DNA of 64,000 nt from Planctomicrobium piriforme (GCA_945861585.1 CAMAVC010000004.1:450-64449), one strand, 5' to 3'; positions 15,337 through 55,299 are shown, counted from the stretch's first letter. The notes: a model not told the origin generated them from the letters alone. A program made the numbers and translations.

Positions 15337-15439
15337 GGAATGATCCCATATGTGGGCAGGGGGTATCTGACAGATTACACTCTACGCTGTGACGGTTCTT
15401 CGTTTCCCGCCCGCCGAAACCCTGCCGCTTGAGGTTTTC

Positions 15440-16671: not shown

Positions 16672-19008
16672 ATGAATCGCACTCTGACGACGGCACTCGC
16701 GGCCTGGGCTTTGACGTCACTCGCCGCGGCGGCCGATTGGCCCGACTGGCGCGGCCCCGAGCAGGATCGGCACTACGCCGGCCCGCCGCTGGTCACTTCG
16801 TTCGATGCCGGGCAAGGCACCAACGTGCTCTGGAAGAGCGACGAGGCAGGCGGCATTTCCACCCCCGTGGTCATGGGCGGGCGGCTCTTCACGCTCGTGC
16901 GGCACAAGCCGGGGACGACGGAAGAGGCGGAGAAGGTGCTCTGCCTCGACGCGGCGACGGGCAAAAAGCTCTGGGAAAACGTGTTCAACGTCTATCTTTC
17001 GGACGTGCCGGCCGAGCGGGTCGGCTGGTCGGCCGTGGTCGCCGATCCCGCGAGCAACACTGTCTTTGCCCACGGCGTGTGCGGCGTGTTCACCGCCATC
17101 GACGCCGCCACGGGAGCGACGAAGTGGCAGCGGTCGCTCCATGAGGAATTCGGCTTTCTCTCCACGTACGGCGGCCGGACGAACATTCCGGTGGTGTTCG
17201 AGGATCTCGTGATCGCCAGCGCCGTCGTGACGGGCTGGGGCGACACCGCCCGGCCCGCCCATCGCTTCCTGGGAATGGACAAGTCGACCGGCGAGGTCCG
17301 CTGGATGAACGGCACGAAAGAACTCCCCGAAGACACGACCTACAGCACGCCTTCGCTCGCCGATTTCGGCGGCTCCGCCGCGCTCGTCTTCGGCTCGAGC
17401 GACGGCAGCGTGTGGAACTTCCAGCCGCGGACGGGCCAGGCCGTCTGGAACTTCAAGCTCTCACGCCGTGGCATCAACACCGCGCCGCTCGTCGCTGGCG
17501 ACACGGTGATCATCTCGCAGTCGGAGGAAAACCTCGACAACACATCGATGGGATCGGCCACGGCATTCAAGGCGACCGGCACGGGCGACATCACGGCCAC
17601 GAACGTGATCTGGCAGAAGAAGGGCGTGATGGACGGCCGGGCGATGCCGGTCGTGCTCGGCGACCGTGTGTATTTCGTCGATGACGGTGCGAAGGTGTAT
17701 GCGTTCGACCGGCAGACGGGCGCGGCAGTCGGCCGCCCTCAGAAACTGCTCGGCACGATCGTCCGCGGCAGCCCACTCGTGGCCGACGGCAAGCTCTACG
17801 TGTGTTCGACGGGCGGCTGGCACGTGCTCGAGCCGACGAAGGACGGGCTGAAGTTCGTAAACCGGATGCGGCTCGACGAGGCGGATGAAGTAACGGCCTC
17901 GCCGATCGCCTCCCGGGGACTCCTCTATCTCACGACGAACGCGCGGCTGTATTGCCTCGGCGACAAGGCCGCAGCGACATCCTCCTCCGCATCCGTCGGC
18001 CCGACGGTGCCGCAGAAGGTCTCCGACGCCACCCGGGCCCCGGCGGGCGCACCCGCCTGGGTGCAGGTCGTGCCGGCCGAGGCCCAGATCGCCGCCGGTG
18101 AGTCGCTGCCCCTGAAAATTCGCCTCTTCGACGCAGCGGGCCGGTTCGTGAAGGAATCGCCTGCCACGTTCACGGCCACCGCCGGCGCAGTCGCGAGCGA
18201 CGGCACCTACACGGCCCCCGCGGGCCAGCATGCCGCTGCGATCGTGACGGCGAAGGTCGGCGCACTGGAGGGCAAGGCCCGCATCCGTTCGATGCCGCCG
18301 CTCCCATGGTCGTTCGACTTCGACGAGACTCCTCTCGCGGCCGATTCCAAGACGGGCGTCGTGAAGGGCGAGCCACCCCTCCCGTGGATTGGCATGCGGT
18401 ATCGCCACGTGGTCCGTGAGGTCGACGGGTCGAAATGCCTCGTCAAGATTACGACGATCCCCAAAGGCACTCGCAGCCAAGGCTGGATCGGGCCGATCGC
18501 ATTGCACGGCTACGTCGTTCGGGCCGACTTCCGCGCGCAGGAGACCGGAGTCGAGAAACCCGGATCTCCTGCCTCCGGCGCACCGACGTCGCCCGGCTCC
18601 GACGCCGATGCCTTCACGAAGGCGTTCGGCACCGCTGCCGCCCTCGAGAAGGCCCGCATGCCCGACATGGGGCTCGTGGCCCAGCGGTACACGCTCGATC
18701 TCATGGGCGCTGCGCAGCAACTCCAGATCCGGAGCTGGCCGCCCCAGGTCGCCACCTACTTCTCGAAAACGATTCCGTTTTCCTGGGAGGCGGGCCGGTG
18801 GTACACGATGAAGTTCGAGGCCCGCACGACGGGCAAGGCTGCCGTCCTGCGCGGCAAGGTGTGGCCGCGCGGTGAAGCTGAGCCGGAGGCGTGGACAATC
18901 GAAGCCACACACGATGCGGGCAATCTTCAAGGGAGCCCCGGCTTCTTCGGCAACTCGAAAGACTCCGAGATCTCTATCGACAACGTGAGAGTGGAGGCGG
19001 TGCAATGA
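16672..19008 (+). CDS. PQQ-like beta-propeller repeat protein with C-terminal Ig-like and lectin-like (concanavalin/DUF1080-like) regions, secreted
   Basis: Signal peptide plus the AADWPDWRGP motif. Repeated propeller blades. C-terminal region ends ...GNSKDSEISIDNVRVEAV. ATG at 16672 chosen. Confidence 0.8.
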   Translation: MNRTLTTALAAWALTSLAAAADWPDWRGPEQDRHYAGPPLVTSFDAGQGTNVLWKSDEAGGISTPVVMGGRLFTLVRHKPGTTEEAEKVLCLDAATGKKLWENVFNVYLSDVPAERVGWSAVVADPASNTVFAHGVCGVFTAIDAATGATKWQRSLHEEFGFLSTYGGRTNIPVVFEDLVIASAVVTGWGDTARPAHRFLGMDKSTGEVRWMNGTKELPEDTTYSTPSLADFGGSAALVFGSSDGSVWNFQPRTGQAVWNFKLSRRGINTAPLVAGDTVIISQSEENLDNTSMGSATAFKATGTGDITATNVIWQKKGVMDGRAMPVVLGDRVYFVDDGAKVYAFDRQTGAAVGRPQKLLGTIVRGSPLVADGKLYVCSTGGWHVLEPTKDGLKFVNRMRLDEADEVTASPIASRGLLYLTTNARLYCLGDKAAATSSSASVGPTVPQKVSDATRAPAGAPAWVQVVPAEAQIAAGESLPLKIRLFDAAGRFVKESPATFTATAGAVASDGTYTAPAGQHAAAIVTAKVGALEGKARIRSMPPLPWSFDFDETPLAADSKTGVVKGEPPLPWIGMRYRHVVREVDGSKCLVKITTIPKGTRSQGWIGPIALHGYVVRADFRAQETGVEKPGSPASGAPTSPGSDADAFTKAFGTAAALEKARMPDMGLVAQRYTLDLMGAAQQLQIRSWPPQVATYFSKTIPFSWEAGRWYTMKFEARTTGKAAVLRGKVWPRGEAEPEAWTIEATHDAGNLQGSPGFFGNSKDSEISIDNVRVEAVQ

Positions 19009-20642
19009 CTCTGAGAATCGCATTCGTGTTCGGGATAGGTCTCCTCACCAATGCCGCCGTCGCCGCCGACTGGGCCCAGTGGGGTGGCTCGCCGGTTCGC
19101 AACAACGTGTCTCCGGCGAAGAACATTCCGGCGGAGTGGGCGCCCGGCGACTTCGACCTCGACACGGGCGAGTGGAAGCCCGAGACGAGCAAAAACGTGG
19201 CCTGGGTGGCGGCGCTCGGCAGCCAGAGCTACGGCAACCCGGTCGTCGCCGGCGGCAAGGCCTACGTCGGCACGAACAACGGCAAGGGCTGGCTGAAGCG
19301 GTATCCTCCCGCCGTCGATCTCGGCTGCCTGCTCGCCTTCGACGACCGCGACGGCTCGTTCCTCTGGCAGGATTCCAGCGAGAAGCTGCCCACCGGCCGC
19401 GTACACGACTGGCCGCTCCAGGGCATCTGCTGTGCGCCGCTCGTGGAGGGAGACCGCCTCTGGTATGTGACGAGCCGCGGCGAGGTGAAGTGCCTCGACA
19501 CCGCCGGGTTCCACGACGGCGAGAACGACGGCCCCTTCACGGGCGAGAAGGTCGCGGAGAAGGACGAGGCCGACGTCGTCTGGGTGCTCGACATGATGAA
19601 GCAGCTCGGTGTGTCGCAGCACAACATGTGCTCGTGCAGCGTGACGAGCGCCGGCGACTTGCTCTTCGTGAACACGAGCAACGGCGTCGACGAAGGGCAC
19701 ATCAACCTCCCCAACGCAGAGGCCCCGAGCTTTCTGTGCATCGACAAGCGCGACGGCAAGGTGCTGTGGGCCGACAATACGCCCGGCGCCAACGTGCTGC
19801 ACGGCCAGTGGTCGAGCCCGGCCTACGCGGAGCTCGGCGGCGTGCCGCAGGTGCTGTTTGGCGGTGGCGACGGCTGGCTGTATGCCTTCGACGCCCGCGG
19901 CGAGAACGGCCGGGCCAAGAAGCTCTGGGAATTCGACTGCAATCCCAAGGAGTCGAAATACACGCTCGGCGGCCGGGCCGACCGCAACCACATCATCGGC
20001 ACACCGGTGGCTCACGAGGGGCTCGTGTATGTCGCCGTCGGCGAGGATCCTGAGCACGGCGAGGGCGTGGGCCACTTGTGGTGCATCGATCCCACGAAGC
20101 GGGGCGACGTGTCGAGCGAACTGGCCGTCAGCCTGAAAGATCCGAACACGCCCCTGCCCCGCCGCCGCGAGCAGGCGGTGATCAAGGAGCAGGGGGAGGT
20201 GGCCCGGCCCAATCCGAATTCGGCCGCCGTGTGGCACTATCCGGGCGTCGATGCCGATGGAAACGGCAAGCTCGACTTCGAGGAGACGATGCACCGCACC
20301 TGCGGCACGGTGGCGATTGACCAGGGGCTGCTCTTTGTGGCCGATTTCAGCGGCCTCTTCCATTGCCTCGACGTGAAGACCGGCAAGCCGCACTGGACCC
20401 ACGACATGCTCGCCGCCAGCTGGGGCTCGCCGCTGATCGTGGACGGCAAGGTGTACATCGGTGACGAGGATGGCGACATCACCGTGTTCAAGCTCGCGCC
20501 CGAAAAGGAAATGCTGGCGGAGATCAACATGGGCAACAGCGTCTACTCGACGCCGATCGTGGCCGGTGACACGCTCTACATCGCCAACAAGAGCCATCTG
20601 TTCGCGATCCGGGCCGGAGCCACTCCCGTCGGGGTGAAGTGA
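19005..20642 (+). CDS. PQQ-like beta-propeller repeat protein, secreted
   Basis: MTLRIAFVFGIGLLTNAAVAADWAQWGGSP. ATGA overlap with the upstream stop. Confidence 0.8.
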   Translation: MTLRIAFVFGIGLLTNAAVAADWAQWGGSPVRNNVSPAKNIPAEWAPGDFDLDTGEWKPETSKNVAWVAALGSQSYGNPVVAGGKAYVGTNNGKGWLKRYPPAVDLGCLLAFDDRDGSFLWQDSSEKLPTGRVHDWPLQGICCAPLVEGDRLWYVTSRGEVKCLDTAGFHDGENDGPFTGEKVAEKDEADVVWVLDMMKQLGVSQHNMCSCSVTSAGDLLFVNTSNGVDEGHINLPNAEAPSFLCIDKRDGKVLWADNTPGANVLHGQWSSPAYAELGGVPQVLFGGGDGWLYAFDARGENGRAKKLWEFDCNPKESKYTLGGRADRNHIIGTPVAHEGLVYVAVGEDPEHGEGVGHLWCIDPTKRGDVSSELAVSLKDPNTPLPRRREQAVIKEQGEVARPNPNSAAVWHYPGVDADGNGKLDFEETMHRTCGTVAIDQGLLFVADFSGLFHCLDVKTGKPHWTHDMLAASWGSPLIVDGKVYIGDEDGDITVFKLAPEKEMLAEINMGNSVYSTPIVAGDTLYIANKSHLFAIRAGATPVGVK

Positions 20643-20643
20643 G

Positions 20644-22251
20644 ATGCGGCGGTGTGCAGGGCCTTGGATCGGGGTGGTCCTCCTCGCAGCCTGCTGCCAC
20701 GCCGAGGAACCGGCGTCGGCGTTTCGCGTCAGGCCCTACCTGCAGAATCCAGCCTCCGACGCGATGACCGTCCGCTGGCTGACCAACGACGACAGGCCGG
20801 GGACGCTGCGCGTCGCGGGCCGGGAGTTCACGTCTGCACCGGTCCTGTGCCTCGAGCTCGCCTACCAGCCGAACGAAGCCCGCGACGATCGGCTCGGCAG
20901 TGCCCCCTTCCTGCACTCCGTGCGCGTGACCGGACTCGAGCCCGCGATGAGCTATCCCTATGCCGTTGAGCAGGGTGATGAAACCAGGAAGGCGATCCTC
21001 ACCACGGCACCCAAACCCGGCGACGTGGGGCCGGGCGGCGGTGTGCGGCTGTTCTTCTATGCCGACTGCGAAGCACAGCCCGAATCGCGCGGCTCGCGCG
21101 TGGCATGGCCGCCGTCGCCGTCACTCCCGGGAGGGCCGCGGCCTGGCTGGGTGGAGGGCCGCTATCCCGCCGACGAGACGACGGGTTACCGGATGAACCT
21201 CGCGCTCATCGCCGCCCGGGCCGCCGAGAGCCTGCGGGCCAAAAACCCCGTGCTCGTGAGCGTCGTGGGCGATCTCGTGGAGAGCGGCGGCGAGCAGCGC
21301 GACTGGGACGAGTTTTGGCGACACAATGCCGGCGACTTCGGCACGCTCGCCTCACGGGTGCCGATCGTGGCGGCCTTGGGGAATCACGAACTCTTCGGCG
21401 GGCCGCCTTCCGACGACCCGAAGAAGGACCTCGGCGGCTACTCCGGCCGGGCGACGCTCGTGGGCGCGATGAAGTTTCTCACCTACTTCGACCATCCCAC
21501 GAACGGGGCCGCCGATGAGCGGCACGAGGAACGGTATCACCGAGTCGACTTCGGCCCCGTCACCCTGCTCACGCTCGACACGACCAACGGCGGCGGCGAC
21601 GACGGGCCGGATGATACGAACCACGATCTCGACCGCGCCGACGCATCCCACGTCCCCGACTACGCCCCGGGGTCGGAGCAGTATGCGTGGCTCGAGCGCC
21701 AGTTGTCTGACGCGCGCGCCGCGGGCCGGATCATCCTCGTGCAGTTTCACCATGCGCCCTACTCGTCCGGCCCACACGGACTCCCCCCCGGAGACGGCCT
21801 CGGGGAGAATCTCCAGTCGGGCCAGCCGTTGCGGGTCTTCGCGGATCTCTTCCGCACGCACGGTGTCCGCGCCGTGTTCTCCGGGCACGACGAGATGTAC
21901 GAACACTCGATCGTGGACGGGATCCACTACTACGACGTCGGCATCGGGGGCGATGCCCTGCGGGGCCCCGAGGCTGCCGCGACCAACGGGCGGCAGGTCT
22001 TCCTGGCGCACGATCACGCGCCCGAGCGATGGAACGGCGACGTGCTCGAATCCGGTGGCAAGCACTATGGCCACGTGGAGGTCGATGTGGAGCGAAACGC
22101 GGCGGGGCCCGGGTTCACCGTTTCGATCCGGCCTGTCCACCTGTTTCCCGTGCTCGATCCCGCCAAGCCGGGTACGATCGCGACTTGGGAACGTCGCGAA
22201 TACGACGACGTGGTGACATTCGACGCTGCCATCAAGGAGCCCTCACGATGA
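20644..22251 (+). CDS. Metallophosphoesterase (purple-acid-phosphatase-like), secreted
   Basis: N-terminal FRVRPYLQNPASDAMTVRW, GDLVESG, GNHE and FHHAPYSSGPHG motifs. Starts 1 nt after the upstream stop. Confidence 0.8.
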   Translation: MRRCAGPWIGVVLLAACCHAEEPASAFRVRPYLQNPASDAMTVRWLTNDDRPGTLRVAGREFTSAPVLCLELAYQPNEARDDRLGSAPFLHSVRVTGLEPAMSYPYAVEQGDETRKAILTTAPKPGDVGPGGGVRLFFYADCEAQPESRGSRVAWPPSPSLPGGPRPGWVEGRYPADETTGYRMNLALIAARAAESLRAKNPVLVSVVGDLVESGGEQRDWDEFWRHNAGDFGTLASRVPIVAALGNHELFGGPPSDDPKKDLGGYSGRATLVGAMKFLTYFDHPTNGAADERHEERYHRVDFGPVTLLTLDTTNGGGDDGPDDTNHDLDRADASHVPDYAPGSEQYAWLERQLSDARAAGRIILVQFHHAPYSSGPHGLPPGDGLGENLQSGQPLRVFADLFRTHGVRAVFSGHDEMYEHSIVDGIHYYDVGIGGDALRGPEAAATNGRQVFLAHDHAPERWNGDVLESGGKHYGHVEVDVERNAAGPGFTVSIRPVHLFPVLDPAKPGTIATWERREYDDVVTFDAAIKEPSR

Positions 22252-23906
22252 ATCTGACCACTCTCGTCCTCGCGCTTGTCGTGTCTGCCTGGGCTACGTG
22301 CCTGACCGCCGCAGAGCCGACGCCACCGCGCCAGATGGTGCTGGGTGCGAAACGGATCGTGATTCTCGGCGACTCGATCACATACGGCGGCGGCTGGGTG
22401 GTGCCGTTCATCGCCTGGCTCGAATCCGAAGGGTGGACCGGAGACGTCATCAACATGGGCCTCTCAAGCGAGACGGTGTCGGGGCTCTCCGAGGAGGGCC
22501 ACGCCGGTGGGAAGTTTCCCCGGCCCGATCTCCACGAGCGGCTCGACCGCGTGCTGCGCGTCGGACGGCCCGACCTCGTGATCGCCTGCTACGGGATGAA
22601 CTGCGGCATCTACCAGCCGCTCGACGAGGCGAGGTTTACGAAGTTCAAGAATGGGATGCAGCGGTTGCACGACGCGGTCGAGAAGACCGGCGCGAAGATC
22701 ATCCATCTCACGCCGCCCGTCTACGACCAGCGGCCCGACAAGGACGGGCCGGCCGGGAAGGTCGATTACGACGCCGTGCTCGACGCCTACTCGAAGTGGC
22801 TGCTCTCGAAGCGGGCCGACGGCTGGATCGTGGTCGACACCCACGGGCCGATGAAAGCGGCGCTCGCGGCAGCCCGTGCGAAAGACCCAGCCACGATATT
22901 CGCCCCCGACGCGGTCCACCCCAACGAGGCAGGCCACTGGGCCTTCGCTCGGGGACTGTTCTCGGGCCTCGGCGCACACGCCGTCGCCGCGAAGGAGACG
23001 CCGGAGCACTTCGCCGCCTTCGTACCCGACGTGAAGCGGCGCATGGAGGTTCTCCGCGACGCCTACCTCGCGGCCGCCGGCCATCAGCGGCCCGGCGTCG
23101 CGACTGGCCTGCCGCTCGGCGAGGCCGAGGCCAAGACCCGCGATCTCACCGAATCGATCCGCTCGCGGCGTTACCACCTGATGGGTGGCCAGACGGGCCA
23201 GGGTGTCGAATGGCGGAGTCCCGTCGAGTGGCCGCAGCCGCGGGTCGTCGATCCGGGCCCGGCCCCGCAGTCCGCCGCCCCCGTGCCGTCCGACGCGATC
23301 GTGCTCTTCGGCGGCAAGGATCTTTCCGCCTGGAGCAACGGTGAGAACTGGCGGGTGGCCGATGGCGTCGCGACGGTCGGCAAGGGAGACGTCCGCACGA
23401 AGCAGGGCTTCGGCGACTGCCAGCTCCACGTGGAATTCCGCACCGCCGCCGACACGCAGGGCAAGGGGCAGCAGCGCAGCAACTCCGGCGTGTTCTTCCA
23501 AGACAAGTACGAGATCCAGATCCTCGATTCCTTCCAGGACGGCACCGACCAGCCCGTGACCTACTTCGACGGCCAGTGCGGCGCCCTCTACAAGCAGCAG
23601 CCCCCCGCCGTGAACGCCTGCCGCAAGCCGGGCGAATGGCAGACCTACGACATCCTGTTCACCCGGCCGCGGTTCAAGGCCGACGGGTCGCTCGCGAAGC
23701 CCGGCCGGATCAGCGTGCTCCACAACGGTGTGGCGATCCACTCCGATACGGTGATCAAGGGCGACACGTTCTTCCACGCCCCGCCGAGCTACACGGCGCA
23801 TCCCGACGCCCTGCCGATCCGCCTCCAGGACCACGGCAACCCGGTGCAGTTCCGCTCGATCTGGGTCCGCCCCTTCGAGCCCCTCGTGCCGACGCTCAAG
23901 GAGTAG
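22248..23906 (+). CDS. SGNH/GDSL hydrolase fused to a DUF1080 (3-keto-disaccharide-hydrolase-like) domain, secreted
   Basis: RIVILGDSITYGGG (SGNH block I). C-terminal NSGVFFQDKYEIQILDS ... GEWQTYDILF ... VLHNGVAIH (DUF1080-like). ATGA overlap with the upstream gene. Its TAG stop lies in a degenerate T module. Confidence 0.8.
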   Translation: MNLTTLVLALVVSAWATCLTAAEPTPPRQMVLGAKRIVILGDSITYGGGWVVPFIAWLESEGWTGDVINMGLSSETVSGLSEEGHAGGKFPRPDLHERLDRVLRVGRPDLVIACYGMNCGIYQPLDEARFTKFKNGMQRLHDAVEKTGAKIIHLTPPVYDQRPDKDGPAGKVDYDAVLDAYSKWLLSKRADGWIVVDTHGPMKAALAAARAKDPATIFAPDAVHPNEAGHWAFARGLFSGLGAHAVAAKETPEHFAAFVPDVKRRMEVLRDAYLAAAGHQRPGVATGLPLGEAEAKTRDLTESIRSRRYHLMGGQTGQGVEWRSPVEWPQPRVVDPGPAPQSAAPVPSDAIVLFGGKDLSAWSNGENWRVADGVATVGKGDVRTKQGFGDCQLHVEFRTAADTQGKGQQRSNSGVFFQDKYEIQILDSFQDGTDQPVTYFDGQCGALYKQQPPAVNACRKPGEWQTYDILFTRPRFKADGSLAKPGRISVLHNGVAIHSDTVIKGDTFFHAPPSYTAHPDALPIRLQDHGNPVQFRSIWVRPFEPLVPTLKE

Positions 23907-30775: not shown

Positions 30776-30970
30776 GCCCAATCCGGCTCGGGGCTGCCCA
30801 TGCCCTGAGAGCCGGGCTGTGGGAGCGAGCGAAGCCATGGATGGCGAAAGCGAAGCGGACACGCAGAGAGCGGATGCCACGATGGCATCCGCGAACGTCC
30901 GGCGACGGGGCTGGGCAGTCACGAGCCGGATTGGGCGCGAGGAGGCCCGACAGGCTGAACCCTTTCGTAA
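30776..30970. repeat. Repeat cluster R6: Y-type unit with GCCCAATCCGGCTCG termini + mutated T module
   Basis: GCCCAATCCGGCTCGGGGCTGCCC ... GGGCAGTCACGAGCCGGATTGGGC, then GACAGGCTGAACCCTTTCGTAA. Overlaps the last codons of moeA. Confidence 0.85.
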
Positions 30971-32211
30971 GTACGCAGCACGACGTCGACTTCCGAGCTG
31001 GGCTCATGGGTCGCGCGGCCGGCGGGGAGCGCGACGTAGCCATTGGCGCCCGCGAAGCCGCGGAGGTCGGAGGAGCCCGTCCACGGCAGCGGCGTCGCTG
31101 TGAGCGCGTCCGGCGGGCCGTCGAGCCGACACGGCAGATACACGGGCCGGTCCGCAGCGCCCTTCGCCGGGGCCGTGAGCCGCGCGCTGGCCCGCGGCAG
31201 GTGCCACGCATCGCGCGGCTGCCCGGCGAGGATCATGAGCGCGGGCCGCACGAAGAGTTCGAAACAGACGAGGCTGCTCGCCGGATTGCCCGGGAGGCCG
31301 AAGACGAGCGTCGACGCTGCGCCCTCGCGCCGCGCTACGCCGAACCACACCGGCTTGCCCGGCTTATGCCGCACTTTGTGGAAAATCTTCTCGACGCCGC
31401 ACCGTAGAAAGATGTCGGGGACGAGATCGAGATCACCGGCCGACACACCGCCCGAGAGCAGGAGCACGTCGGCGGCAAGGCCCTGAGCCACGGCTGCTCG
31501 GATCGCCTCCGGCCTGTCGACCGCGATGCCGAGCGGGATCGGCTCAGCACCGAGCAGACGCACGGCAGCGGCGAGCATCGGGCCGTTCGAGTTTCGCGTC
31601 TGGCCGAATGCGGGCACGGCGTCGGGCGGCACGAGCTCGCTGCCGGTAGAGAGAATCGCGACCCGCGGCCGACCCGCGGCCACGACATGCGTCGCCCCGG
31701 CCTCCGCGGCGAGCCCGATCTCGGCCGCGCCGAGCAGGCTGCCGGCCGGCAGCACCGCGTCTCCAGCGCGAAAGGCGACGCCCTGCCGTGCCACGTGCTG
31801 CCCCGGCCGGAATTTTTGATCGTCGAGGTTCACGCGGCTGCCGGCATGTGCGGTCGCTGCATCGTCGCAGGCACACTCCACGGGGATCACCGCATCAACG
31901 CCGGCGGGGATGGGGGCCCCGGTCATGATCCGGGCGCAGCACCCGGGCCTGATCTCAAGCGCCGTCACGTCGCCAGCGGCGAGGTCCACCACCACGTCGA
32001 GCGCAACGACTCCGCCGGAGGCCGCGGCCACGTCGGCCGATCGTACCGCAAATCCATCCATCATCGCCCGATCCCAGGGAGGCGAATCGACGTCGGCGAC
32101 GACGGGCTCCGCGAGCGCGAGGCCGCACGCGTCGAGCAGCCGCATCCGCCGTGGCGGCAACGGCCCGGCGGTCGCCTCGACCAGAGCGATCGCGTCGGCA
32201 AGTTCGATCAT
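30919..32211 (-). CDS. moeA: Molybdopterin molybdotransferase
   Basis: 430 aa with MoeA-like organisation (MIELADAIALVE..., SGGVSAGDLD). The last ~16 codons (YERVQPVGPPRAQSGS) are encoded by repeat R6. Confidence 0.9.
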   Translation of the reverse strand: MIELADAIALVEATAGPLPPRRMRLLDACGLALAEPVVADVDSPPWDRAMMDGFAVRSADVAAASGGVVALDVVVDLAAGDVTALEIRPGCCARIMTGAPIPAGVDAVIPVECACDDAATAHAGSRVNLDDQKFRPGQHVARQGVAFRAGDAVLPAGSLLGAAEIGLAAEAGATHVVAAGRPRVAILSTGSELVPPDAVPAFGQTRNSNGPMLAAAVRLLGAEPIPLGIAVDRPEAIRAAVAQGLAADVLLLSGGVSAGDLDLVPDIFLRCGVEKIFHKVRHKPGKPVWFGVARREGAASTLVFGLPGNPASSLVCFELFVRPALMILAGQPRDAWHLPRASARLTAPAKGAADRPVYLPCRLDGPPDALTATPLPWTGSSDLRGFAGANGYVALPAGRATHEPSSEVDVVLRTYERVQPVGPPRAQSGS

Positions 32212-33113: not shown

Positions 33114-33974
33114 CTACTCTACCAGCACGATCGGCCCCGCGGAGCCACCTGCCGCTTCGCCCTGCCCGCCCGCACCACGCCGGGCAAGCACGCGGATGTA
33201 GGGCGGGAGGAACGAGGCCCGGTGGGCGAAGGTGCCGACGCCAGCATCCGGCTGCGTGTGGTCGGGCTCGGCGACGTCCTCGATGACGAAGCCCGCTGCA
33301 CAGATGCCGCCGAGGAGGGCGGCGAACGAGTGGACGAATTCATGCGTGCCCGGCTCCCGTAGCCGCGACGGCGGTGCGGGGGAAAGTGGGTCGGGGTGCG
33401 TCACGGGAACGCGCAGCTCGTAGCGGCCGGCCGCGTTCGGCTCGATCGTCGCCTGGAGGCTCATCGGAGACTTGTGCTGGCTCACGTAGCGTCCGCCCGG
33501 CTTCGTCACGCGCGCGACCTCGCGAAACACGCGGGCTACGTCCGGCACGTAGCAGGTGCTCACCGGATGAATCACGATGTCGAAAGACCAGTGGGCGAGC
33601 ATCGACAGGTCGTCGATCGAGCCCTGGAGGATCTCGAGCTGCAGCTTCCGTTCGCGGGCCACCTGCCGGTCGAGCTCGAGCATCGCTGGTGAGAGATCGA
33701 CCACCGTAACGTTCGCGCCGGCGGCGGCGTACAGCGGGCCATGTTTGCCGCCGCCTGCTGCGAGGCAGAGCACGTGCAGCCCGTCGAGCCGTGCGGGGAG
33801 CCAGGGGCGGCCGGCCGAACCGGTCGCCCCACCGCTCCCGAGCCACCCGCGGGGATCGCCGAAGGCTTCGTCCACCGCCGGTCGCGCGAGGGCCGCCCCT
33901 CGCGCCGCGAGCGCATCCCACGCCCGCGCGTTGTGGTCGAGCACGGCCTCGCGCGATACGGCCGGGCGTTTCAT
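33114..33974 (-). CDS. Class I SAM-dependent methyltransferase
   Basis: Motif I VLCLAAGGGKHG. ATGA overlap with the upstream PEP-CTERM gene. Confidence 0.8.
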   Translation of the reverse strand: MKRPAVSREAVLDHNARAWDALAARGAALARPAVDEAFGDPRGWLGSGGATGSAGRPWLPARLDGLHVLCLAAGGGKHGPLYAAAGANVTVVDLSPAMLELDRQVARERKLQLEILQGSIDDLSMLAHWSFDIVIHPVSTCYVPDVARVFREVARVTKPGGRYVSQHKSPMSLQATIEPNAAGRYELRVPVTHPDPLSPAPPSRLREPGTHEFVHSFAALLGGICAAGFVIEDVAEPDHTQPDAGVGTFAHRASFLPPYIRVLARRGAGGQGEAAGGSAGPIVLVE

Positions 33975-34795
33975 CGCCGCCGGGCCCGCCGCGTTGCGAG
34001 GCCGGCGACCACGCCGCAGGCGAGGAGCGCGGCCGTGCCCGGCTCGGGCACGGCCGCCAGCGTGAGGTTGTCGAGGGCCACGTAGGTCGGCGTGTTGATG
34101 CCCCACGGCCCGACGTCGCTCGAGGCAAAGTCGATCACGATCGAGCGGGCTGCTCCGAGCGCAGCAAGGGAGAAGTCCGTCCACTGATCCACGATGAGCG
34201 TGCTGCCGCCGCGGAAGTCGGCCAGAAAAAACGTCGCCGTGCCGGTCGTGGTGCCAGTGCCGTCGAGGGCCGAGTTGCCCGTGAACATGACCGACAGATA
34301 GTCACCGGCCTCGTATTTGCCCGATGAAAAGTTGTTGGGGTCACCATCGCGGATCGTGAGGGCGGTGTACGTCGTGTTCACGAGTTTCACCGACACCGGC
34401 TGCATCCCGGCCGGTAGGCCGATCAGCGGCGGCGGATCGTAACTCTGCCAGTAGGCCACCGCGAAGGTGCCAGTGCCTCCCGCGCCGCCGCCGGTGAACG
34501 ACGACGTGTCGTTCGTCCAACTGTTGGTCGACGTGTCGCCCTTGTTCGAGAAGGCGAAGCCCGACCAATATTCCGCGGGCGAGTAGCGGGTGATCGTGGT
34601 GCGAAAGGATACGGAGCCCGAGGTGAGCGTCACCGCCTGGGCCACGTAGTCAGCCTCCGTCCCTGGCCCGCCATACGTCGCGGAATTCGGCCCGAGCGTG
34701 ACATCTTCGAAGTCGATGATCGCCGCGGCTGCCGGAGCGAACGCCGTGGCGGCCAAGAGGGCTAGCACAGCCAGCCGAAGTCCGTGGGCTTGCAT
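33971..34795 (-). CDS. PEP-CTERM sorting-domain protein
   Basis: Signal peptide MQAHGLRLAVLALLAATAFAPAAA. C-terminus AVPEPGTAALLACGVVAGLATRRARRR. The N-terminal region may be DUF4465-like. Unverified. Confidence 0.75.
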   Translation of the reverse strand: MQAHGLRLAVLALLAATAFAPAAAAIIDFEDVTLGPNSATYGGPGTEADYVAQAVTLTSGSVSFRTTITRYSPAEYWSGFAFSNKGDTSTNSWTNDTSSFTGGGAGGTGTFAVAYWQSYDPPPLIGLPAGMQPVSVKLVNTTYTALTIRDGDPNNFSSGKYEAGDYLSVMFTGNSALDGTGTTTGTATFFLADFRGGSTLIVDQWTDFSLAALGAARSIVIDFASSDVGPWGINTPTYVALDNLTLAAVPEPGTAALLACGVVAGLATRRARRR

Positions 34796-34845
34796 GAGCG
34801 ATTCTCTCCTTGTGTGGATCGTTTCAACGGGCATGGTGTCGGCGG

Positions 34846-35664
34846 TCACCAGGGTGTCTCATGGGATTCACCCCGGGCCCGCGTGCAGGCCGCCGCGAGC
34901 ACGCGGGTGTCGATCGTCTCGGCCAGAAACTGCACGGCACCGTCACCGACGAGGCCAAAGGCCCCGCCGGAATGTCGGCTGCGGATTTCATCTTCCGGCA
35001 CCGGCTGATTGATGGCGAAGGCCTGGTCGTAGAGATTGCGGCCGTTGATCCACTGCCCATCTGCCCACGGTCCAGAGGCACACTCGGCGACGAAGATCGT
35101 CTTCGACAGGCCGTCGGTGATCTGCGCCTGCCCGAAGCTCGTCTCGTGAACGAGGGGGCCTTTCATCGGCGCGTTCGGCGACGTGATCCGCTCGCCGGCC
35201 AGGCCGCCGTAGTCGCTGCGGCCGTAGCCTCCCACGGTCCACCCGACACGGTCAGCCGATGGGCAGATGAAGATCCGCAGGCCGGTGATCGCGGCGGAGC
35301 GGTTGGCGGCAGCGTCGAACGGCTGGGAAAGATCGAGCCTGTCGGCCGTGCCCTGCTCCTCGAGCCAGGGCAGAATGAAGACGCTCCACGCAAGGCAGCG
35401 ATTGGCACCCCCGAGCCCCGGCTTCCACTCCAGGCAGCCCACAGGAAACTGCCGCTTGGCGAGCAGGTGGCCATGGAGCGCGCAGCCCATGTGCCGCAAA
35501 TTGTTGACGCAAGCAGTTCGCCGGGCAGCTTCCCGGGCCGCCTGGGCGGCCGGGAGCAAAAGGGCGACGAGCGCCGCCACGATCGCCACGACAACGAGCA
35601 GCTCGACGAGCGTCATGCCACCGCGCAGCGGCGCCGCACCACGATGAAAAACCCGCGAATCCAT
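34846..35664 (-). CDS. DUF1559-type protein with a prepilin-type N-terminal cleavage/methylation motif
   Basis: GMTLVELLVVVAIVAALVALLLPAAQAAREAARRTACVNNLRHMG, typical of the expanded planctomycete family. Confidence 0.85.
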   Translation of the reverse strand: MDSRVFHRGAAPLRGGMTLVELLVVVAIVAALVALLLPAAQAAREAARRTACVNNLRHMGCALHGHLLAKRQFPVGCLEWKPGLGGANRCLAWSVFILPWLEEQGTADRLDLSQPFDAAANRSAAITGLRIFICPSADRVGWTVGGYGRSDYGGLAGERITSPNAPMKGPLVHETSFGQAQITDGLSKTIFVAECASGPWADGQWINGRNLYDQAFAINQPVPEDEIRSRHSGGAFGLVGDGAVQFLAETIDTRVLAAACTRARGESHETPW

Positions 35665-36486
35665 GCGCGCCACCGCGGCCCGGGCAGATCGCGACCCGAC
35701 CACGCGCGCGCCTCCATGCGAGGGCGCACCCGGAGCCGACCGACCGCTCGAAGCCGTGCTTCTGGAAACTGCCAAACGTCCGACTGCGGCGGATCGCTCC
35801 GCAGCACCCGTGCCTGCCGCCCCGCCCTCGCGAGGAAAGCCTGCTCAGCGACTTTGGTAGGTCTTCTGACTCCCAGGCTCGGCCGGCTGCATGCCTTCTC
35901 GCGGAGGCCGCATCGCAATGCGGTTCGCAATGGCTTGGAAACAGCCGACCTTGGCGCCTGGTCACAGCGGCGGGGCCGTCCCGGAATCACACCGGTGTTC
36001 CCTGTTTGCCGGCGACGAGCAAGAGCTCACCCCGGCCACCAGAGTCGTGGCGGCAATGTATCGGGGGCCCCGCCCCTGTCAAGCAGAGCGTTCGCCGCGA
36101 GCCCGTGAGAAGTTATGCCGGTCGCGCAAAGACGCAGGCCGAAAATGTGACGTTCGTAGGGCCTTGCGCCATACAGTTTGTGCACGCGAAACAGACGGCA
36201 TTTCTTACCTGATGCGCAGCCCTAAGTCGTGCCGGGAAAAATACTTGGAGACACTCAAGCCGCTTTCGTCCGTCCGCCGATAGCCCACTCTGTCCCCCGG
36301 GGCAATCACTGTGCCCGTCGGGCAACCAGGGGGCGGCAGTTACCTGCAAATGCTTCGAGTCACGGAATGGCTCGACAGGCCTGCCGCAGAAAAGTTCGTG
36401 GATCACAAGCCTCGGGGCGCAGAAGCCTCAAGACAAAAACGGAAGTCGACTTCCGGGTGCTCCACAAGCAAAGGAGATGTGGCTCG

Positions 36487-37326
36487 ATGAAGCGTATGTT
36501 GTTCCTCGGTGCACTGGTTCTCGGTGTCACCGTTTGTAGCCAGTCTTTCGGTTTCGAGCTCCTTGATCGGATGCTCGGCCACAAGGGCTGTGCCTCGTGC
36601 TGTGAGCCCGGCTGCGATGCCGGCAATGGTTGCTGTGAGCCCGGCTGCGGTGCCGGCAACGGCTGTGCGGAGCCGGCCTGTGGTGCTGGCAATGGGTGTG
36701 CGGAACCGGCGTGCGACGCTGGTGCCGGTTGCTGCGAGCCGAGCTGCGGCGCTGCCTCTTGCTGCGGCACCCGCTGCCGGAAGAAGCACGACCTGTTCGG
36801 TGGCCTGAAGGGTCTGTTCGAAAAGTGCAAGCGGAAGCACCACGGCTGCTGCGACAGCTGCTGTGAGCCCGCCTGCGACGCTGGTAACGGCTGTGCGGAG
36901 CCCGCTTGCGGTGCTGGCAACGGTTGTGCGGAGCCCGCCTGCGGAGCCGGCAACGGCTGTGCGGAACCGGCCTGCGACGCTGGTGCTGGCTGCTGCGAGC
37001 CGAGCTGCGGTGCGGCCTCGTGCTGCGGCGTGCGGAAGAAGCACTGCCGTGGGACGCCGATTGCGGACCTTCTCCGCGCCATCCACAACGCGAAGAAGCG
37101 TTGCCACAAGGCGAGCTGCTGCGATAGCTGCTGCGGCGAGCCCGACTGCTCGGCCGGCAACGGCTGCTGCGAGCCTGGTTGCGGTGCCGGCAACGGCTGC
37201 TGCGAGCCGGCCTGCGGTGCGGTCGCCGCTCCGGTCGAGGCTGCGGCCCCGACGCCGGACGCGTCGGCTGCCAAGAAGACGACCGGCAAGGTCGTCGCGG
37301 TGAGCCGGACGGTTGCCACGAAGTAA
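36487..37326 (+). CDS. Secreted cysteine-rich tandem-repeat protein (13 C-x-EP-x-C units, about 48 Cys in 279 aa)
   Basis: AAGGAG SD and signal peptide MKRMLFLGALVLGVTVCSQSFG. 33-nt (11-aa) repeats GCAEPACGAGN in three blocks, separated by Lys/His-rich linkers. Copies differ at synonymous sites. TAA stop and strong terminator. Confidence 0.75.
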   Translation: MKRMLFLGALVLGVTVCSQSFGFELLDRMLGHKGCASCCEPGCDAGNGCCEPGCGAGNGCAEPACGAGNGCAEPACDAGAGCCEPSCGAASCCGTRCRKKHDLFGGLKGLFEKCKRKHHGCCDSCCEPACDAGNGCAEPACGAGNGCAEPACGAGNGCAEPACDAGAGCCEPSCGAASCCGVRKKHCRGTPIADLLRAIHNAKKRCHKASCCDSCCGEPDCSAGNGCCEPGCGAGNGCCEPACGAVAAPVEAAAPTPDASAAKKTTGKVVAVSRTVATK

Positions 37327-37377
37327 GTAGTCAAGCGGTCGAAACGGAAGTTTCGTTGCCCGACTTCGGCCAGTGAG

Positions 37378-37416
37378 CTCCGCCCGGGGGGAAACCCCCG
37401 GGCGGAGTCATTTTAT
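37378..37416 (+). terminator. Intrinsic terminator (13-bp GC stem, GAAA loop, TCATTTTAT tail)
   Basis: CTCCGCCCGGGGG-GAAA-CCCCCGGGCGGAG followed by a T-rich tract, about 50 nt after the Cys-rich gene's stop. Confidence 0.75.
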
Positions 37417-37492
37417 GCGCGTGCGAAACACGCACTCGCAGCGTGCAGCACGCTGCTCCATCGCCAAGGGCGATCGCCCGTTCTTCCTTCAC

Positions 37493-37804: not shown

Positions 37805-38494
37805 CTACAGGCCGAGGACGGCGGCGGGTGGGCCCGTACGGGTGATGCGGCCGGCGACGAGTTCGACCACCTGCGTGGCGGCGCGGCGGGCGAAGGCGTG
37901 GTCGTGCGTCACCACCACCATGGTCTGCCCGCCGCGGGCGAGCGACACGATCGTCTCCATGACCTCGGCCGACATCGCCGGGTCGAGGGCGCTCGTCGGC
38001 TCGTCGAAGAGCATCACCCGGGGCCCGAGGGCCAGCGCGCGGGCGATCGCCACCCGCTGCTGCTGGCCGCCCGAGAGCGTGGCGGGGCGGGCGGCGGCGA
38101 ATGCCGCCATGCCCACCCGGGCGAGCTGAGCCTCGGCCATGCCGTGGGCCTCGGCCCGCGGCAGCCGGGAGACGACCCGCGGCCCAAGGGCCACGTTCTC
38201 GAGCACCGAGAGATGCGGAAACAGGTTGAACTGCTGAAACACCATGCCGACGTCGCGTCGCACTCGTTCGAGCACTCGCGCGGGGGGCGGGCCCGGCTGC
38301 ATGCGGTGCTCGCCGATCGTCACTGCACCGGCGTCGAAGGCCTCGAGGCCGTTCAAGCAGCGCAGGAGCGTGCTCTTGCCGCCCCCCGATGGACCGACGA
38401 TCGCCGTCACCTCGCGCTCGCCGGCTCGCAGGCTGACGTCGGCGAGCACGCGCGTGCCGCCGCGGGCCTTCGATAATCCTACGATGTCGATCAT
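37805..38494 (-). CDS. Polar amino-acid ABC transporter ATP-binding protein
   Basis: Walker A GPSGGGKST, signature LSGGQQQRVAIARAL, Walker B MLFDEPTSALD. Confidence 0.9.
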   Translation of the reverse strand: MIDIVGLSKARGGTRVLADVSLRAGEREVTAIVGPSGGGKSTLLRCLNGLEAFDAGAVTIGEHRMQPGPPPARVLERVRRDVGMVFQQFNLFPHLSVLENVALGPRVVSRLPRAEAHGMAEAQLARVGMAAFAAARPATLSGGQQQRVAIARALALGPRVMLFDEPTSALDPAMSAEVMETIVSLARGGQTMVVVTHDHAFARRAATQVVELVAGRITRTGPPAAVLGL

Positions 38495-39963
38495 GGGCGT
38501 TGCTCCTGCCCGGTCTCGAAGCGGCGGGAGAGGAGCGACAGGGGCCAGCTCATCGCGAGGTAGAGGATCGCGGTGATCACGGCGAGCTCCACGATCCGCC
38601 CGGTCGAGAGGGCGAGCACGCTATATCGCTTCGTGAGCTCGATGACCGTGATCACGGAGCACACGCTCGTGTCCTTGAAAAGTGCGATGAAGTCGTTGGT
38701 GACCGGCGGCATCACGAGCCGCACGGCCTGCGGCACGACGACGTGCCGCAAAGCCTGCCACTTCGTCATGCCAAGCGCCACGGCCGCCTCGAACTGGCCG
38801 AGTGGCACGGCCTTGAGCCCGGCACGGTAGATCTCCGATTCGTAAGCCGCGTAGTTGAGAGCGAGCCCGGCGACGGCCGCCACGAGCGCGGGCAGGGCGA
38901 GCCCGACCTTCGGTAAGAGGAAAAAGATCGCATACAGCTGCAGCATGAGCGGCGTGCCCCGCACCACCTCCACGAAGCCCGTGAGGAGCGGCCGCAGCCA
39001 GGCCGGGCCGTAGAGCCTCCCCAGGGCAACGCCGAGTCCCGCGAAGATCGCCAGCGGAAACGACAGGCAGGCCAGCAGCACGGTCATGCCCGCCGCGGAG
39101 AGCAGCAATGGCAGCGTCTCGATTGCGAGCTCACGGAGCGAGCGGCGGGTCGCGACGGGGATTTCGGCCGCGTCGCGGAGCGCGAGGATCTGCTGCCGAC
39201 CGCCGAGATCCCAGCGATCGTAGAGTGTCTTCAAGCGGCCGTCGGCGATGATCCGGCCGAGGGCCTCGTCGATCGCCGTGGAGAGCCGCGGCGTGTCGCG
39301 GGCCGTGAGCACCGTGTAATACCCGCCGCCGAACGGCCGGCCCACGGCCCGCAGGCCGGCGAAGCGGTCGGCGTAGAAGTTGAAGATGCAGTCGTCCATC
39401 AGAGCCGCGTCGAGGACGCCGCTCTTCACCTGCTCCAGGGAGTCGATCGTGCCGTCGTAGCCGATCGCGTCGACCTCGAGTTCGGGGTGCGACCGCAGGA
39501 ATAGTTCGGCGGCCGACCCGGTGAGCACGCCCACGCGCCAGCGGCCGGCAGGCCCGGGAGCGGTGAGCGTTTCGACCGTGTCGAGCGGCCCGTCGCGCCG
39601 CGCGATCAGTTGCAGCCCGTAGGCGAAGTACGGCCGCGAACAGTGGTAATCACGCCGGCGTTCCGGCAACAGCTCGATGCCGTTGATGACGCAGTCGGCC
39701 GGGTGGCCCAGGAGCAAAGGGAGCCGATCCCACTGACCCTGCTGAAACCTGGCCTTCACGCCGAGCTCGGCGGCGATCAGCTCGGCCAGCTCGACCTCGA
39801 AGCCCGTGAGCCGCTGCGGCGCGTCGGGATCGGGAAACACGTGCGGCCCCCCGCCCTCCTGATCCGCCGCCCAGACGAGTTCGCCACGGGCCACGACAGC
39901 GGCGAGCTCCCCGCCTTCGAGGCCGCTGGGGGCGCTCATGCCGATCACCAACGGCACGAGCAT
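38491..39963 (-). CDS. Fused substrate-binding protein / permease of a polar amino-acid ABC transporter
   Basis: N-terminal SBP family-3-like region, then a permease with an EAA-like loop (ESEIYRAGLKAVPLGQFEAAVALGM). ATGA overlap with the ATPase gene. Start uncertain (39963 chosen, 40026 possible). Confidence 0.85.
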   Translation of the reverse strand: MLVPLVIGMSAPSGLEGGELAAVVARGELVWAADQEGGGPHVFPDPDAPQRLTGFEVELAELIAAELGVKARFQQGQWDRLPLLLGHPADCVINGIELLPERRRDYHCSRPYFAYGLQLIARRDGPLDTVETLTAPGPAGRWRVGVLTGSAAELFLRSHPELEVDAIGYDGTIDSLEQVKSGVLDAALMDDCIFNFYADRFAGLRAVGRPFGGGYYTVLTARDTPRLSTAIDEALGRIIADGRLKTLYDRWDLGGRQQILALRDAAEIPVATRRSLRELAIETLPLLLSAAGMTVLLACLSFPLAIFAGLGVALGRLYGPAWLRPLLTGFVEVVRGTPLMLQLYAIFFLLPKVGLALPALVAAVAGLALNYAAYESEIYRAGLKAVPLGQFEAAVALGMTKWQALRHVVVPQAVRLVMPPVTNDFIALFKDTSVCSVITVIELTKRYSVLALSTGRIVELAVITAILYLAMSWPLSLLSRRFETGQEQRP

Positions 39964-40024
39964 GCAGAGCACCCATGAAGCAGGCCGCTCGCATCCCCGA
40001 CACCCGGCCGGTACGCTCGATCGC

Positions 40025-40804
40025 ATGATGTCAGCCGAATCCAGGATCATTTACGACTTCGGTGCAGGGAATGGTGCCGATCTTCCGTACTACCTGCTGA
40101 AGGCCGATCGGGTCGTCGCGGTCGAGGCCAACCCGGTCCACTGCAACGAGATTCGCTCGCATCTGGCCGAACCACTGGCCTCCGGCCGACTGGTCGTCGT
40201 CAACGCAGTGCTCGACGTTGCCCCGGTCTCGCGGGACGTGCCTTTTTATATCCACAAAACGCGGCCGTGGCTGAGTCAATATCCCCGGCCCGCCGCCGAG
40301 CAGTGCGCCGCCTTCACCGAGACGCTGCTGCCCGCACGAAACGTCGTGGACGTGATTCGCGAATACGGCGATCCGTACTACGTGAAGATCGATCTGGAGC
40401 ACTTCGACCACGTCATCCTGCGTGCCTTGTTTGAGCAGGGTATCCGTCCTCCGTACATCTCCGCCGAAGCGCACACGGCCGAGGTCTTCGCGATCCTGCT
40501 CGCCCTGGGCGGCTATCAATCGTTCAAGCTCGTCGATGGGGCGACGGTGCGCACTCGATACGACGATCGGACGATCTCGACGACCAAGGGCACCACCAAG
40601 CACTCGTTCGCCCATGCCTCTGCCGGTCCCTTCGGCAACGACATCGATGGACCATGGATGGCGCCGAACTCCTTCCTACGGCTGTTGGGGTATGCGGGCC
40701 TGGGCGCCCGGAATGCCTACAAGGACATCCACGCGAGCCGTGTCGACCCGGCCGATCCCAACCACTCGCCGCAGCCGCAATTTCGCATTACGGTCGATTT
40801 CTGA
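40025..40804 (+). CDS. FkbM-family methyltransferase
   Basis: IIYDFGAGNGADLPYYL...VVAVEANP. Overall FkbM-like layout. Unverified. Confidence 0.65.
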   Translation: MMSAESRIIYDFGAGNGADLPYYLLKADRVVAVEANPVHCNEIRSHLAEPLASGRLVVVNAVLDVAPVSRDVPFYIHKTRPWLSQYPRPAAEQCAAFTETLLPARNVVDVIREYGDPYYVKIDLEHFDHVILRALFEQGIRPPYISAEAHTAEVFAILLALGGYQSFKLVDGATVRTRYDDRTISTTKGTTKHSFAHASAGPFGNDIDGPWMAPNSFLRLLGYAGLGARNAYKDIHASRVDPADPNHSPQPQFRITVDF

Positions 40805-55225: not shown

Positions 55226-55299
55226 TGCCTCGTCTTGGACTCGAACCAAGAACCCTCTGATTAAGAGTCAGATGCTCTGACCAATTGAGCTAACGAGGC
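55226..55299 (-). tRNA. tRNA-Lys (anticodon CTT)
   Basis: Manual fold: acceptor GCCTCGT/ACGAGGC, D arm GCTC/GAGC, anticodon stem TCTGA/TCAGA with loop CTCTTAA, T arm CTTGG-TTCGAGT-CCAAG, discriminator A. CCA is not encoded. Confidence 0.95.

Follow-up and report, generated by a model that had tools for sequence, protein, structure and literature searches.

Cysteine-rich (Cys-rich) proteins are known from quite different cellular settings. The chlamydial proteins OmcA and OmcB belong to the outer-membrane complex and are cross-linked by disulfides, which stiffens the envelope, metallothioneins such as SmtA and BmtA are found in bacteria, Csp1 is an exported copper store of methanotrophs, and CC-x-P-x-C style spacing is typical of the keratin-associated proteins. 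The envelopes of planctomycetes have long been described as protein-rich and disulfide-stabilised, and the YTV proteins are the only ones so far linked to this chemistry. These wall proteins are taken here as they are cited in PMC8567305 and PMC12673574 (Hieu 2008; Sagulenko 2017; Mahajan 2020). In this study we analysed a 64,000-nucleotide (nt) stretch of DNA recorded as Planctomicrobium piriforme (GCA_945861585.1, CAMAVC010000004.1:450-64449), in the following called the window, which carries at 36487..37326 on the plus strand a gene for a Cys-rich, predicted exported protein. The protein represents an undescribed and unnamed family found across Pirellulales, a second widespread Cys-rich family beside the YTV proteins. 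We tentatively read it as a cross-linking matrix protein of the cell envelope, and the gene is preceded by a structured leader RNA, which is the most novel element that we found.

The open reading frame (ORF) encodes 279 amino acids (aa) followed by a TAA stop, and an AAGGAG ribosome-binding site (36471-36476) lies 10 nt 5' of the ATG. The product contains 48 Cys, 47 of them beyond the predicted signal-peptide cut, next to 45 Gly and 45 Ala, so that Cys accounts for 17%, i.e. one-sixth, of all residues; the exported protein would have about 25 kDa. Thirteen eleven-residue units of the form C(C/A)EPxC(G/D)AGNG form three blocks, with five units at residues 38-92, five at 125-179 and three at 216-248, and in the DNA they appear as period-33 arrays at 36598-36715, 36857-37001 and 37130-37220 with Tandem Repeats Finder scores of 117-169. 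Blocks 1 and 2 each terminate in CCEPSCGAASCCG. The net charges alternate along the chain (-7, -8 and -5 for the Cys blocks, +7 and +8 for the linkers), all seven His lie in the N-terminal helix or the linkers and flank the Cys blocks, and no C-x-C motif is present. Downstream, a terminator stem at 37377-37408 is followed by CATTTTATG, and this is the only strong plus-strand terminator nearby. A first-pass annotation of this DNA had described the ORF with its AAGGAG, stop codon and GC-hairpin/T-tract terminator, about 48 Cys, 13 repeat units in three blocks, a common ending of the first two blocks and two Lys/His-rich linkers. All of these features were found again, the ending and the linkers verbatim in the translation. 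The parts of the gene are as follows:

36487..36546, plus strand: Sec-type signal peptide, residues 1-20, with the predicted cut between SQS and FG (n-h-c layout, family alignments)
36547..36588, plus strand: N-terminal motif of the mature protein, FGFELLDRMLGHKG, predicted helix (family alignments, AlphaFold)
36589..36771, plus strand: Cys block 1, five eleven-residue units, 16 Cys, net charge -7 (repeats; AlphaFold confidence below 50)
36772..36843, plus strand: linker 1, RCRKKHDLFGGLKGLFEKCKRKHH, cationic and amphipathic, net charge +7, three His (DLFGGLKGLF / GLLSKLF motif conserved family-wide)
36844..37026, plus strand: Cys block 2, five units, 16 Cys, net charge -8 (repeats, charge count)
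37027..37110, plus strand: linker 2, GVRKKHCRGTPIADLLRAIHNAKKRCHK, net charge +8, three His (AlphaFold helix at residues 191-208, confidence about 87)
37111..37215, plus strand: Cys block 3, CCDSCC lead-in and three units, 11 Cys, net charge -5 (repeats, charge count)
37216..37326, plus strand: Ala/Pro spacer, conserved C-terminal tail PTPDASAAKKTTGKVVAVSRTVATK and TAA (family alignments)
37377..37417, plus strand: intrinsic terminator, 14-bp stem with 12 G-C pairs, then a T-run (terminator search)

Several independent measures mark 36487..37326 as a real stand-alone protein-coding gene whose reading frame is under purifying selection. Compared with 16 orthologues, the ratio of non-synonymous to synonymous differences per site (pN/pS) of the window gene is 0.07-0.29 with pS up to 0.4-0.7, and every length difference among these orthologues is a multiple of three. 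The first-pass annotation had argued for selection on the protein and had named a frame not conserved in homologues as one of the results that would speak against the gene; the frame is conserved with the same low pN/pS, and the selection claim holds. Its remark that the repeat copies differ mostly at synonymous positions holds per site, because pS is 0.68 and pN 0.19 between the 13 internal units, but not in raw counts, which are nearly equal (410 synonymous versus 379 non-synonymous differences). The opposite explanation, a chance open frame over a GC-rich, non-coding DNA repeat, draws on the fact that long shadow ORFs are common in this window of 68.6% GC, for instance one of 324 aa at 36360..37334 on the minus strand, which we regard as a shadow frame. 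However, it is at odds with the pN/pS values and the indels in threes, with the GC content at third codon positions, which peaks in the frame of 36487..37326, and with the preservation of ribosome-binding site, ATG, signal peptide and tail down to 35-45% identity, so that it is effectively refuted. Ribosome-binding site and start codon are kept in every locus examined. One metagenomic contig of 958 nt (L088) starts within the leader and stops short of the terminator and is, like L089, uninformative on the transcript.

The product is predicted to be exported by the Sec pathway. Read from the sequence, its N-terminus consists of MKR, the segment MLFLGALVLGVTV and CSQS before FG, i.e. a basic n-region, then a hydrophobic core some 13 residues long, with small residues in positions -3 and -1, and this layout, noted as a clear signal peptide in the first pass, is conserved across the family alignments. 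Other assignments of the N-terminus and C-terminus were rejected. A lipoprotein, including one with an OmcA-type lipobox, does not fit because Cys17 of the signal peptide is not conserved and is replaced in homologues (LGLSTQSFGFE in P0094, LAGQGFGFE in P0111). In a type IV prepilin the hydrophobic helix would follow a G|F-x-x-x-E cleavage motif, but here the hydrophobic segment precedes FGFELL, and the Glu is at +2 instead of +5. A C-terminal Lys anchor like that of Braun lipoprotein is not general, because the last residue, K in the close clade, is mostly R across the family.

Protein searches returned 182 homologues at 90% clustering and 485 matches in a second search, and furthermore 398 matching stretches were found in a collection with one genome per species and 422 clusters at 50% identity. 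The best 120 matches of each protein search were listed, and the organism range given here rests on these listings. All homologues are annotated as hypothetical, and the informatively named ones among the matches listed all belong to Planctomycetota, mostly to Pirellulales, which answers the homologue search proposed in the first pass. The carriers listed are metagenome-assembled genomes (MAGs) of Pirellulales, one Thermoguttaceae MAG and the cultured Pirellulaceae Rosistilla oblonga (CA51_05110), Novipirellula artificiosorum (Poly41_12050), Rubripirellula lacrimiformis (K227x_06970), Allorhodopirellula solitaria and Ca. Laterigemmans baculatus. A literature search on planctomycete metallothioneins, Cys-rich envelope proteins and the locus tags of the cultured homologues yielded nothing on this family. 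At this locus the window shares 99% identity with L001, a MAG of freshwater Pirellulales. The locus is also present, at 67-84% identity and in the gene order of the Pirellulales MAGs, in MAG records whose titles read "Candidatus Kuenenia stuttgartiensis", "uncultured Candidatus Kuenenia sp." or "Planctomicrobium piriforme" (L007, L013, L021, L022, L030, L031 and others; L069, L079), and the taxon labels of these Kuenenia- and Planctomicrobium-titled records look unreliable.

Judged by the alignments, which reach down to about 35-45% identity, it is the non-Cys frame and not the repeat unit that defines the family. This frame consists of the signal peptide with SQS-FGFELLDRMLG (cut after SQS), one to three cationic linkers, a Pro/Ala spacer and the tail. 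Within the N-terminal motif L26, L30 and G31 are invariant and F, G and M nearly so, and the amphipathic, cationic linkers recur with the motifs DLFGGLKGLF, GLLSKLF and LLDRIF. The tail reads PPAPvvDPSA...RRVIQAS..R, in general form PxPDxSA...(R/K)V(V/I)xxS...(K/R), with PTPDASAAKKTTGKVVAVSRTVATK as the window version. Family-wide Cys and tail statistics were taken from 277 members, of which 213 have the tail motif; of these 213, 126 end in R and 63 in K (189 with R or K). The exact unit CAEPACGAGNG is confined to one freshwater clade, its marine relatives have CEPACGCExS instead, and elsewhere the filler is Lys-rich (KCGAEKAKCGADKD), Gly/Lys/Asn-rich, Pro/Val/Lys-rich or HGHGHG, with a Cys still every few residues and usually an Asp or Glu near it despite the changing filler. 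In P0133, P0227/P0228, P0183 and P0161, for example, the frame is retained while the CEPxC filler is swapped for HGHGHG, KCGAEKAKCGADKD, Gly/Lys/Asn or VCKPKPVCKPAP repeats. The limitation of the eleven-residue unit to one clade, the conserved non-Cys frame and the conserved structured leader had all been missed in the first pass. The median Cys content across the family is 16.6%, the commonest gaps between successive Cys are 3 (25%), 0 (18%) and 5 residues (15%), and 144 members have an odd number of Cys, 133 an even one. This random parity argues against a closed set of intramolecular disulfides.

Two AlphaFold2 runs were made, one of the window protein with 82 sequences and one of the Rosistilla protein P0119 with 100 sequences, which gave a mean predicted local distance difference test score (pLDDT) of 49.4 and 53.9, respectively. 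Since helices are predicted only at the signal peptide, the FELLDRML motif (residues 22-30) and the linkers, and since all Cys blocks have a pLDDT below 50 in both runs, the Cys blocks have no predicted autonomous fold; they are predicted to be disordered, with variable filler.

The window protein appears not to be a member of the YTV, metallothionein, keratin-associated, OmcA-type lipoprotein or prepilin families. Neither Pfam nor NCBIfam gave a match at E<=10, and a PDB profile search with the family profile was likewise empty, in line with the earlier statement that the repeat is not a recognised one. Like YTV proteins, the family is predicted to be exported, Cys-rich, built from repeats and restricted to planctomycetes, and a disulfide-stabilised role in the envelope is plausible for both. 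However, no Pfam family, YTV included, was found at E<=10, the string YTV is absent from the 279 aa, and the family has FGFELLDRMLG, the cationic linkers and the DPSA tail instead. Moreover, YTV proteins are reported across the class Planctomycetia, whereas the named members of the window family are assigned to Pirellulales or only at phylum level. With the keratin-associated proteins the family shares short CC-x-P-x-C repeats, a variable copy number, the lack of a stable predicted fold and a presumed disulfide matrix. The window protein has no match to Keratin_B2 (PF01500) or Keratin_B2_2 (PF13885), and among the 82 members scanned against Pfam these high-sulfur keratin models are the only families touched at all, by weak matches of 7 members to Keratin_B2_2 (best E 6e-5) and 5 to Keratin_B2 (best 0.002). 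Keratin-associated proteins are mammalian and intracellular, and the likeness is convergence and not homology. OmcA and OmcB are also envelope proteins of the Planctomycetes-Verrucomicrobia-Chlamydiae (PVC) superphylum, but OmcA is a lipoprotein and OmcB a large folded protein, whereas the window protein is related to neither by sequence or Pfam match and lacks a conserved signal-peptide Cys. Metallothioneins share the high Cys content and are disordered in their apo form, and Csp1, which is lined with Cys, shows that metals can be stored by thiolates outside the cytoplasm. In contrast to both, the window protein has no family match, is modular with about 25 kDa, carries a Sec and not a Tat signal, is not predicted to form a four-helix bundle and has no linked metal regulator; metallothionein profiles matched neither the window protein (Pfam, NCBIfam) nor any of the 82 members at E<=1. 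By analogy, the protein may work most like a disulfide matrix protein of keratin-associated or chlamydial type, or like an exported metallothionein.

The conserved leader came to light because over-long ORF calls in homologues pointed to conserved DNA upstream of the gene. In 76 loci, conservation exceeds 90% over positions 36275-36420 and again over the 30 nt that directly precede the ATG. The leader core is nearly invariant in 72 distinct sequences, whereas synonymous sites of the coding region differ by 0.4-0.5, so that by this comparison conservation is higher in the leader than in the coding sequence. It is non-coding, because it carries indels of 1 and 2 nt. An upstream ORF or leader peptide was rejected for the same reason and because its only ATG (36350) is not conserved, and the small indels also rule out a longer in-frame start at GTG 36229. 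The elements of the leader region are:

36255..36285, plus strand: upstream boxes TCAAGCC (36255-36261) and CCGATAGCC (36277-36285), more than 90% conserved in 76 related loci; candidate promoter elements or 5' edge of the leader
36286..36486, plus strand: structured 5' leader of about 200 nt (conservation, covariation, RNAalifold)
About 36294-36298 with 36329-36333, plus strand: helix P1 (RNAalifold)
36333-36339 (GCGGCAG) with 36381-36387 (CUGCCGC), plus strand: helix P2 (RNAalifold, compensatory variants)
36355-36375, plus strand: hairpin with ACGGAAU loop (36362-36368), conserved
36398-36406 (GUGGAUCAC) with 36457-36465, plus strand: helix P4, 9 bp, just 5' of the ribosome-binding site (compensatory variants)

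The structure was derived with RNAalifold from an alignment (A4) of 15 close and 3 distant sequences, which gave five helices. In this alignment 95.3% of the cells pair, compared with at most 46% when the partners are slid, with the caveat that the structure itself came from that alignment; compensatory changes are seen at eight pairs, and none of 500 shuffles matched the observed values. Helix P2 occurs in the lineage variants GCGGCAG/CUGCCGC, GCGACAG/CUGUCGC, GCGUCAG/CUGACGC and GCAUCAG/CUGAUGC, and P4 in the variants GUGAAUCAC/GUGAUUCAC and GUAGAUCAC/GUGAUCUAC. Single-sequence folding of the leader is only modestly better than shuffles (z -1.55). In distant loci the hairpin loop reads AAGGAGU or AAGGAUU. 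An nhmmer profile of the leader found the element at the equivalent position in the distant loci L085 (E 8e-6), L086 (1e-5) and L083 (0.018), and the pair TCAAG...GCCGATA is also present about 350 nt upstream of these three homologues. In all loci examined and in the window the element occurred nowhere except before this gene, and the window holds no second copy of either the gene or the leader. A palindrome within the leader, CGGAAGTCGACTTCCG (36440-36455), is followed by TTTTTG and scores as a minus-strand terminator; this function was rejected as the hairpin is not conserved in related loci.

We infer from these features that the leader is a post-transcriptional control element of CsrA or riboswitch type. 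In leaders controlled by CsrA/RsmA, a hairpin loop displays A(C/A)GGA and GGA recurs in the ribosome-binding site, and the window leader likewise has GGA at both places. As in translational riboswitches, there is an alternative pairing of a hairpin arm near the AUG: GUGGCUCGA, just 5' of the AUG, is an alternative partner for the hairpin's 5' arm, with a duplex of -11.9 kcal/mol, and this spacer is conserved even in Rosistilla. The window leader differs from both kinds of described leaders in that Rfam 15 gave no plus-strand match in 36250-36490 at E<=10, and at gathering thresholds there was no match either. A search by motif for csrA turned up no gene in the window or in any locus examined, which is uninformative for the host genome. 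The leader is put forward as a candidate new cis-regulatory RNA, in a phylum with very few known.

What the protein does is less settled. The first-pass annotation had offered a disulfide-crosslinked envelope protein or a periplasmic metal-binding protein akin to a metallothionein, and these stay the two leading readings, which the computed evidence does not separate cleanly. Our preference, held tentatively, is that it is a disulfide-cross-linking matrix protein of the envelope that works by analogy with keratin-associated proteins. The exported protein would then act as a thiol-dense, flexible matrix or cross-linking component, with the conserved helices and the tail docking it to membrane, wall or a partner protein. 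Between neighbouring molecules, the acidic Cys blocks would be drawn to the basic linkers, the two core Cys of a unit (C-x4-C) could close small disulfide loops, and the facultative extra Cys (CC units, odd totals) could form intermolecular disulfides, as do the high-sulfur keratin-associated proteins in hair; the structured leader would set the amount of protein post-transcriptionally. This reading is favoured because the keratin models are the only ones touched and the spacing is in keratin-associated style, because Cys parity is random, the Cys blocks are unfolded and the charge blocks alternate, and because metal genes were not seen nearby whereas envelope-related neighbours recur. Planctomycete wall preparations are also rich in Cys-rich proteins (PMC8567305, PMC12673574). 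Several points weigh against it, the first being that the Cys-rich wall proteins identified in planctomycetes are YTV-domain proteins (PMC8567305, PMC12673574), to which the window protein does not belong. Pro amounts to only 6% of the window protein, and the keratin-model matches are weak and compositional. An acidic residue is kept beside Cys as the filler changes (CGCE, CEPxC, CGAD/CGAE), one member has HGHGHG runs, and His stand at the block borders, all of which suits metal ligation better. No homologue from Rhodopirellula baltica, whose wall proteome has reportedly been studied, was among the best 120 matches of each search.

The main alternative is an extracytoplasmic metal- or metalloid-thiolate sponge similar to a metallothionein, in which blocks of Cys, Asp and Glu together with the border His would wrap Cu, Zn, Cd, Co or Ni in the periplasm for buffering or storage. 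We consider this possible, if doubtful. The Cys content of the window protein and the family median, the predicted disorder shared with apo-metallothioneins, the unconserved Cys parity, the acidic neighbours retained across fillers and the C-x-C of distant members (CGCE) agree with it, as do the HGHGHGHGNGHG runs in P0133 and the position of all seven His of the window protein next to Cys blocks. However, Sec export delivers proteins, and with them the thiols, to an oxidising compartment, the protein is far larger than classical metallothioneins, the window protein lacks C-x-C, and no metallothionein model matched it or the 82 members. Moreover, genes for metal sensors or efflux (ArsR/SmtB, MerR/CueR, P-type ATPase, resistance-nodulation-division) were not seen beside the gene in about 90 neighbourhoods, close or distant. 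That the dense, exposed and unstructured Cys form a periplasmic redox buffer or sacrificial oxidant sink, cycling between thiol and disulfide against peroxide, hypochlorite or electrophiles, or passing electrons to disulfide-exchange enzymes, would agree with a periodic Cys pattern kept while the filler varies. A Redoxin/AhpC-TSA/thioredoxin-like gene lies about 2 kb downstream at the distant locus L085, but it was seen only once and is not conserved, the conserved amphipathic linkers and the tail would stay unexplained, and we are aware of no comparable protein that serves as a thiol buffer in the periplasm, so that we judge this role improbable. Very improbable is a polyprotein precursor, from which cleavage at dibasic sites in the linkers would free cationic amphipathic peptides (GGLKGLFEK..., LLRAIHNAKK...) or disulfide-looped peptides, with the acidic blocks as neutralising pro-pieces. 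The alternation of acidic blocks with basic amphipathic helices bearing KK/KR/RK pairs and the conserved linker motifs would suit it, but no protease or peptide-exporter gene is linked in any inspected locus, the tail is again not accounted for, and the layout is a eukaryotic one without a bacterial counterpart known to us. We also consider a wider proposal, unlikely as it stands, in which an undescribed ligand- or protein-responsive leader (a riboswitch or a ribosome-binding-site mimic) gates the translation of a new class of exported, disordered, thiol-dense proteins that buffer metals or redox state or set the mechanics of the enlarged periplasm of planctomycetes. If true, leader RNA and protein would be a self-contained module for envelope homeostasis specific to Pirellulales. 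The remaining probability we assign to something not yet imagined. Whichever role holds, the protein would be a natural block-polyampholyte, Cys-periodic and disordered, that acts outside the cytoplasm. The question of wall, metal store or redox sink is directly testable, because several carriers have been cultured.

Concerning the genome context, the gene is monocistronic: a leader and a terminator of its own enclose it, and the adjacent genes are oriented divergently or convergently. A recurrent metal sensor, metal pump, Dsb or protease neighbour was not seen in the inspected neighbourhoods. In seven more distant Pirellulales genomes the divergent upstream operon always encodes a cupin, two pyrroloquinoline-quinone (PQQ)-like beta-propellers and a receiver-only response regulator (loci considered: L081-L085, L087, L090, L092). 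The propellers are exported, with about 745 aa and 660-860 aa, the intergenic distance is 570-650 nt, and the downstream genes vary; one distant genome has no propeller operon, and another contig is too short to judge. lpxB lies downstream of the Cys-rich gene in three genomes. The recurrent neighbours, exported beta-propellers in marine Pirellulaceae and lpxB, are envelope-related. The window has two adjacent genes for exported propellers at 16735-20609 (plus strand), 16 kb from the Cys-rich gene, without cupin or regulator.

In the freshwater clade the region is colinear and comprises MoeA, a methyltransferase, a DUF4465/PEP-CTERM protein, a DUF1559 pseudopilin-like protein, a minus-strand cobalamin riboswitch, the Cys-rich gene and a convergent ATP-binding cassette (ABC) transporter. 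Since this whole region is colinear in the close clade, the cobalamin neighbour probably reflects descent rather than function. In the window the cobalamin riboswitch (RF00174, 81.7 bits) is located at 35839-36058 on the minus strand with a promoter-like site at 36082-36055, and it heads a divergent operon of three minus-strand genes at 34846-35664, 33971-34849 and 33114-33899, whose products are a DUF1559/N-methyl pseudopilin-like protein, a DUF4465 protein with PEP-CTERM anchor and a methyltransferase. Because DUF4465 is a vitamin-B12-binding domain (PMC13398666, PMC8941943), the operon has the appearance of a B12-scavenging set of planctomycetes, in which the pseudopilin is an unusual partner. 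The convergent polar-amino-acid ABC transporter at 37805-40050 (minus strand) consists of an ATPase and a fused SBP_bac_3-permease and adjoins the Cys-rich gene in 36 of the 46 close loci. Its transporter family also includes cystine importers. Further genes of the window encode an FGE-sulfatase family protein (15389-16660, plus strand), a purple-acid-phosphatase-like metallophosphoesterase (20644-22251, plus strand), a GDSL lipase fused to a 3-keto-disaccharide hydrolase domain (22029-23906, plus strand) and MoeA (30919-32211, minus strand), and a tRNA gene is located at 55226-55299 on the minus strand.

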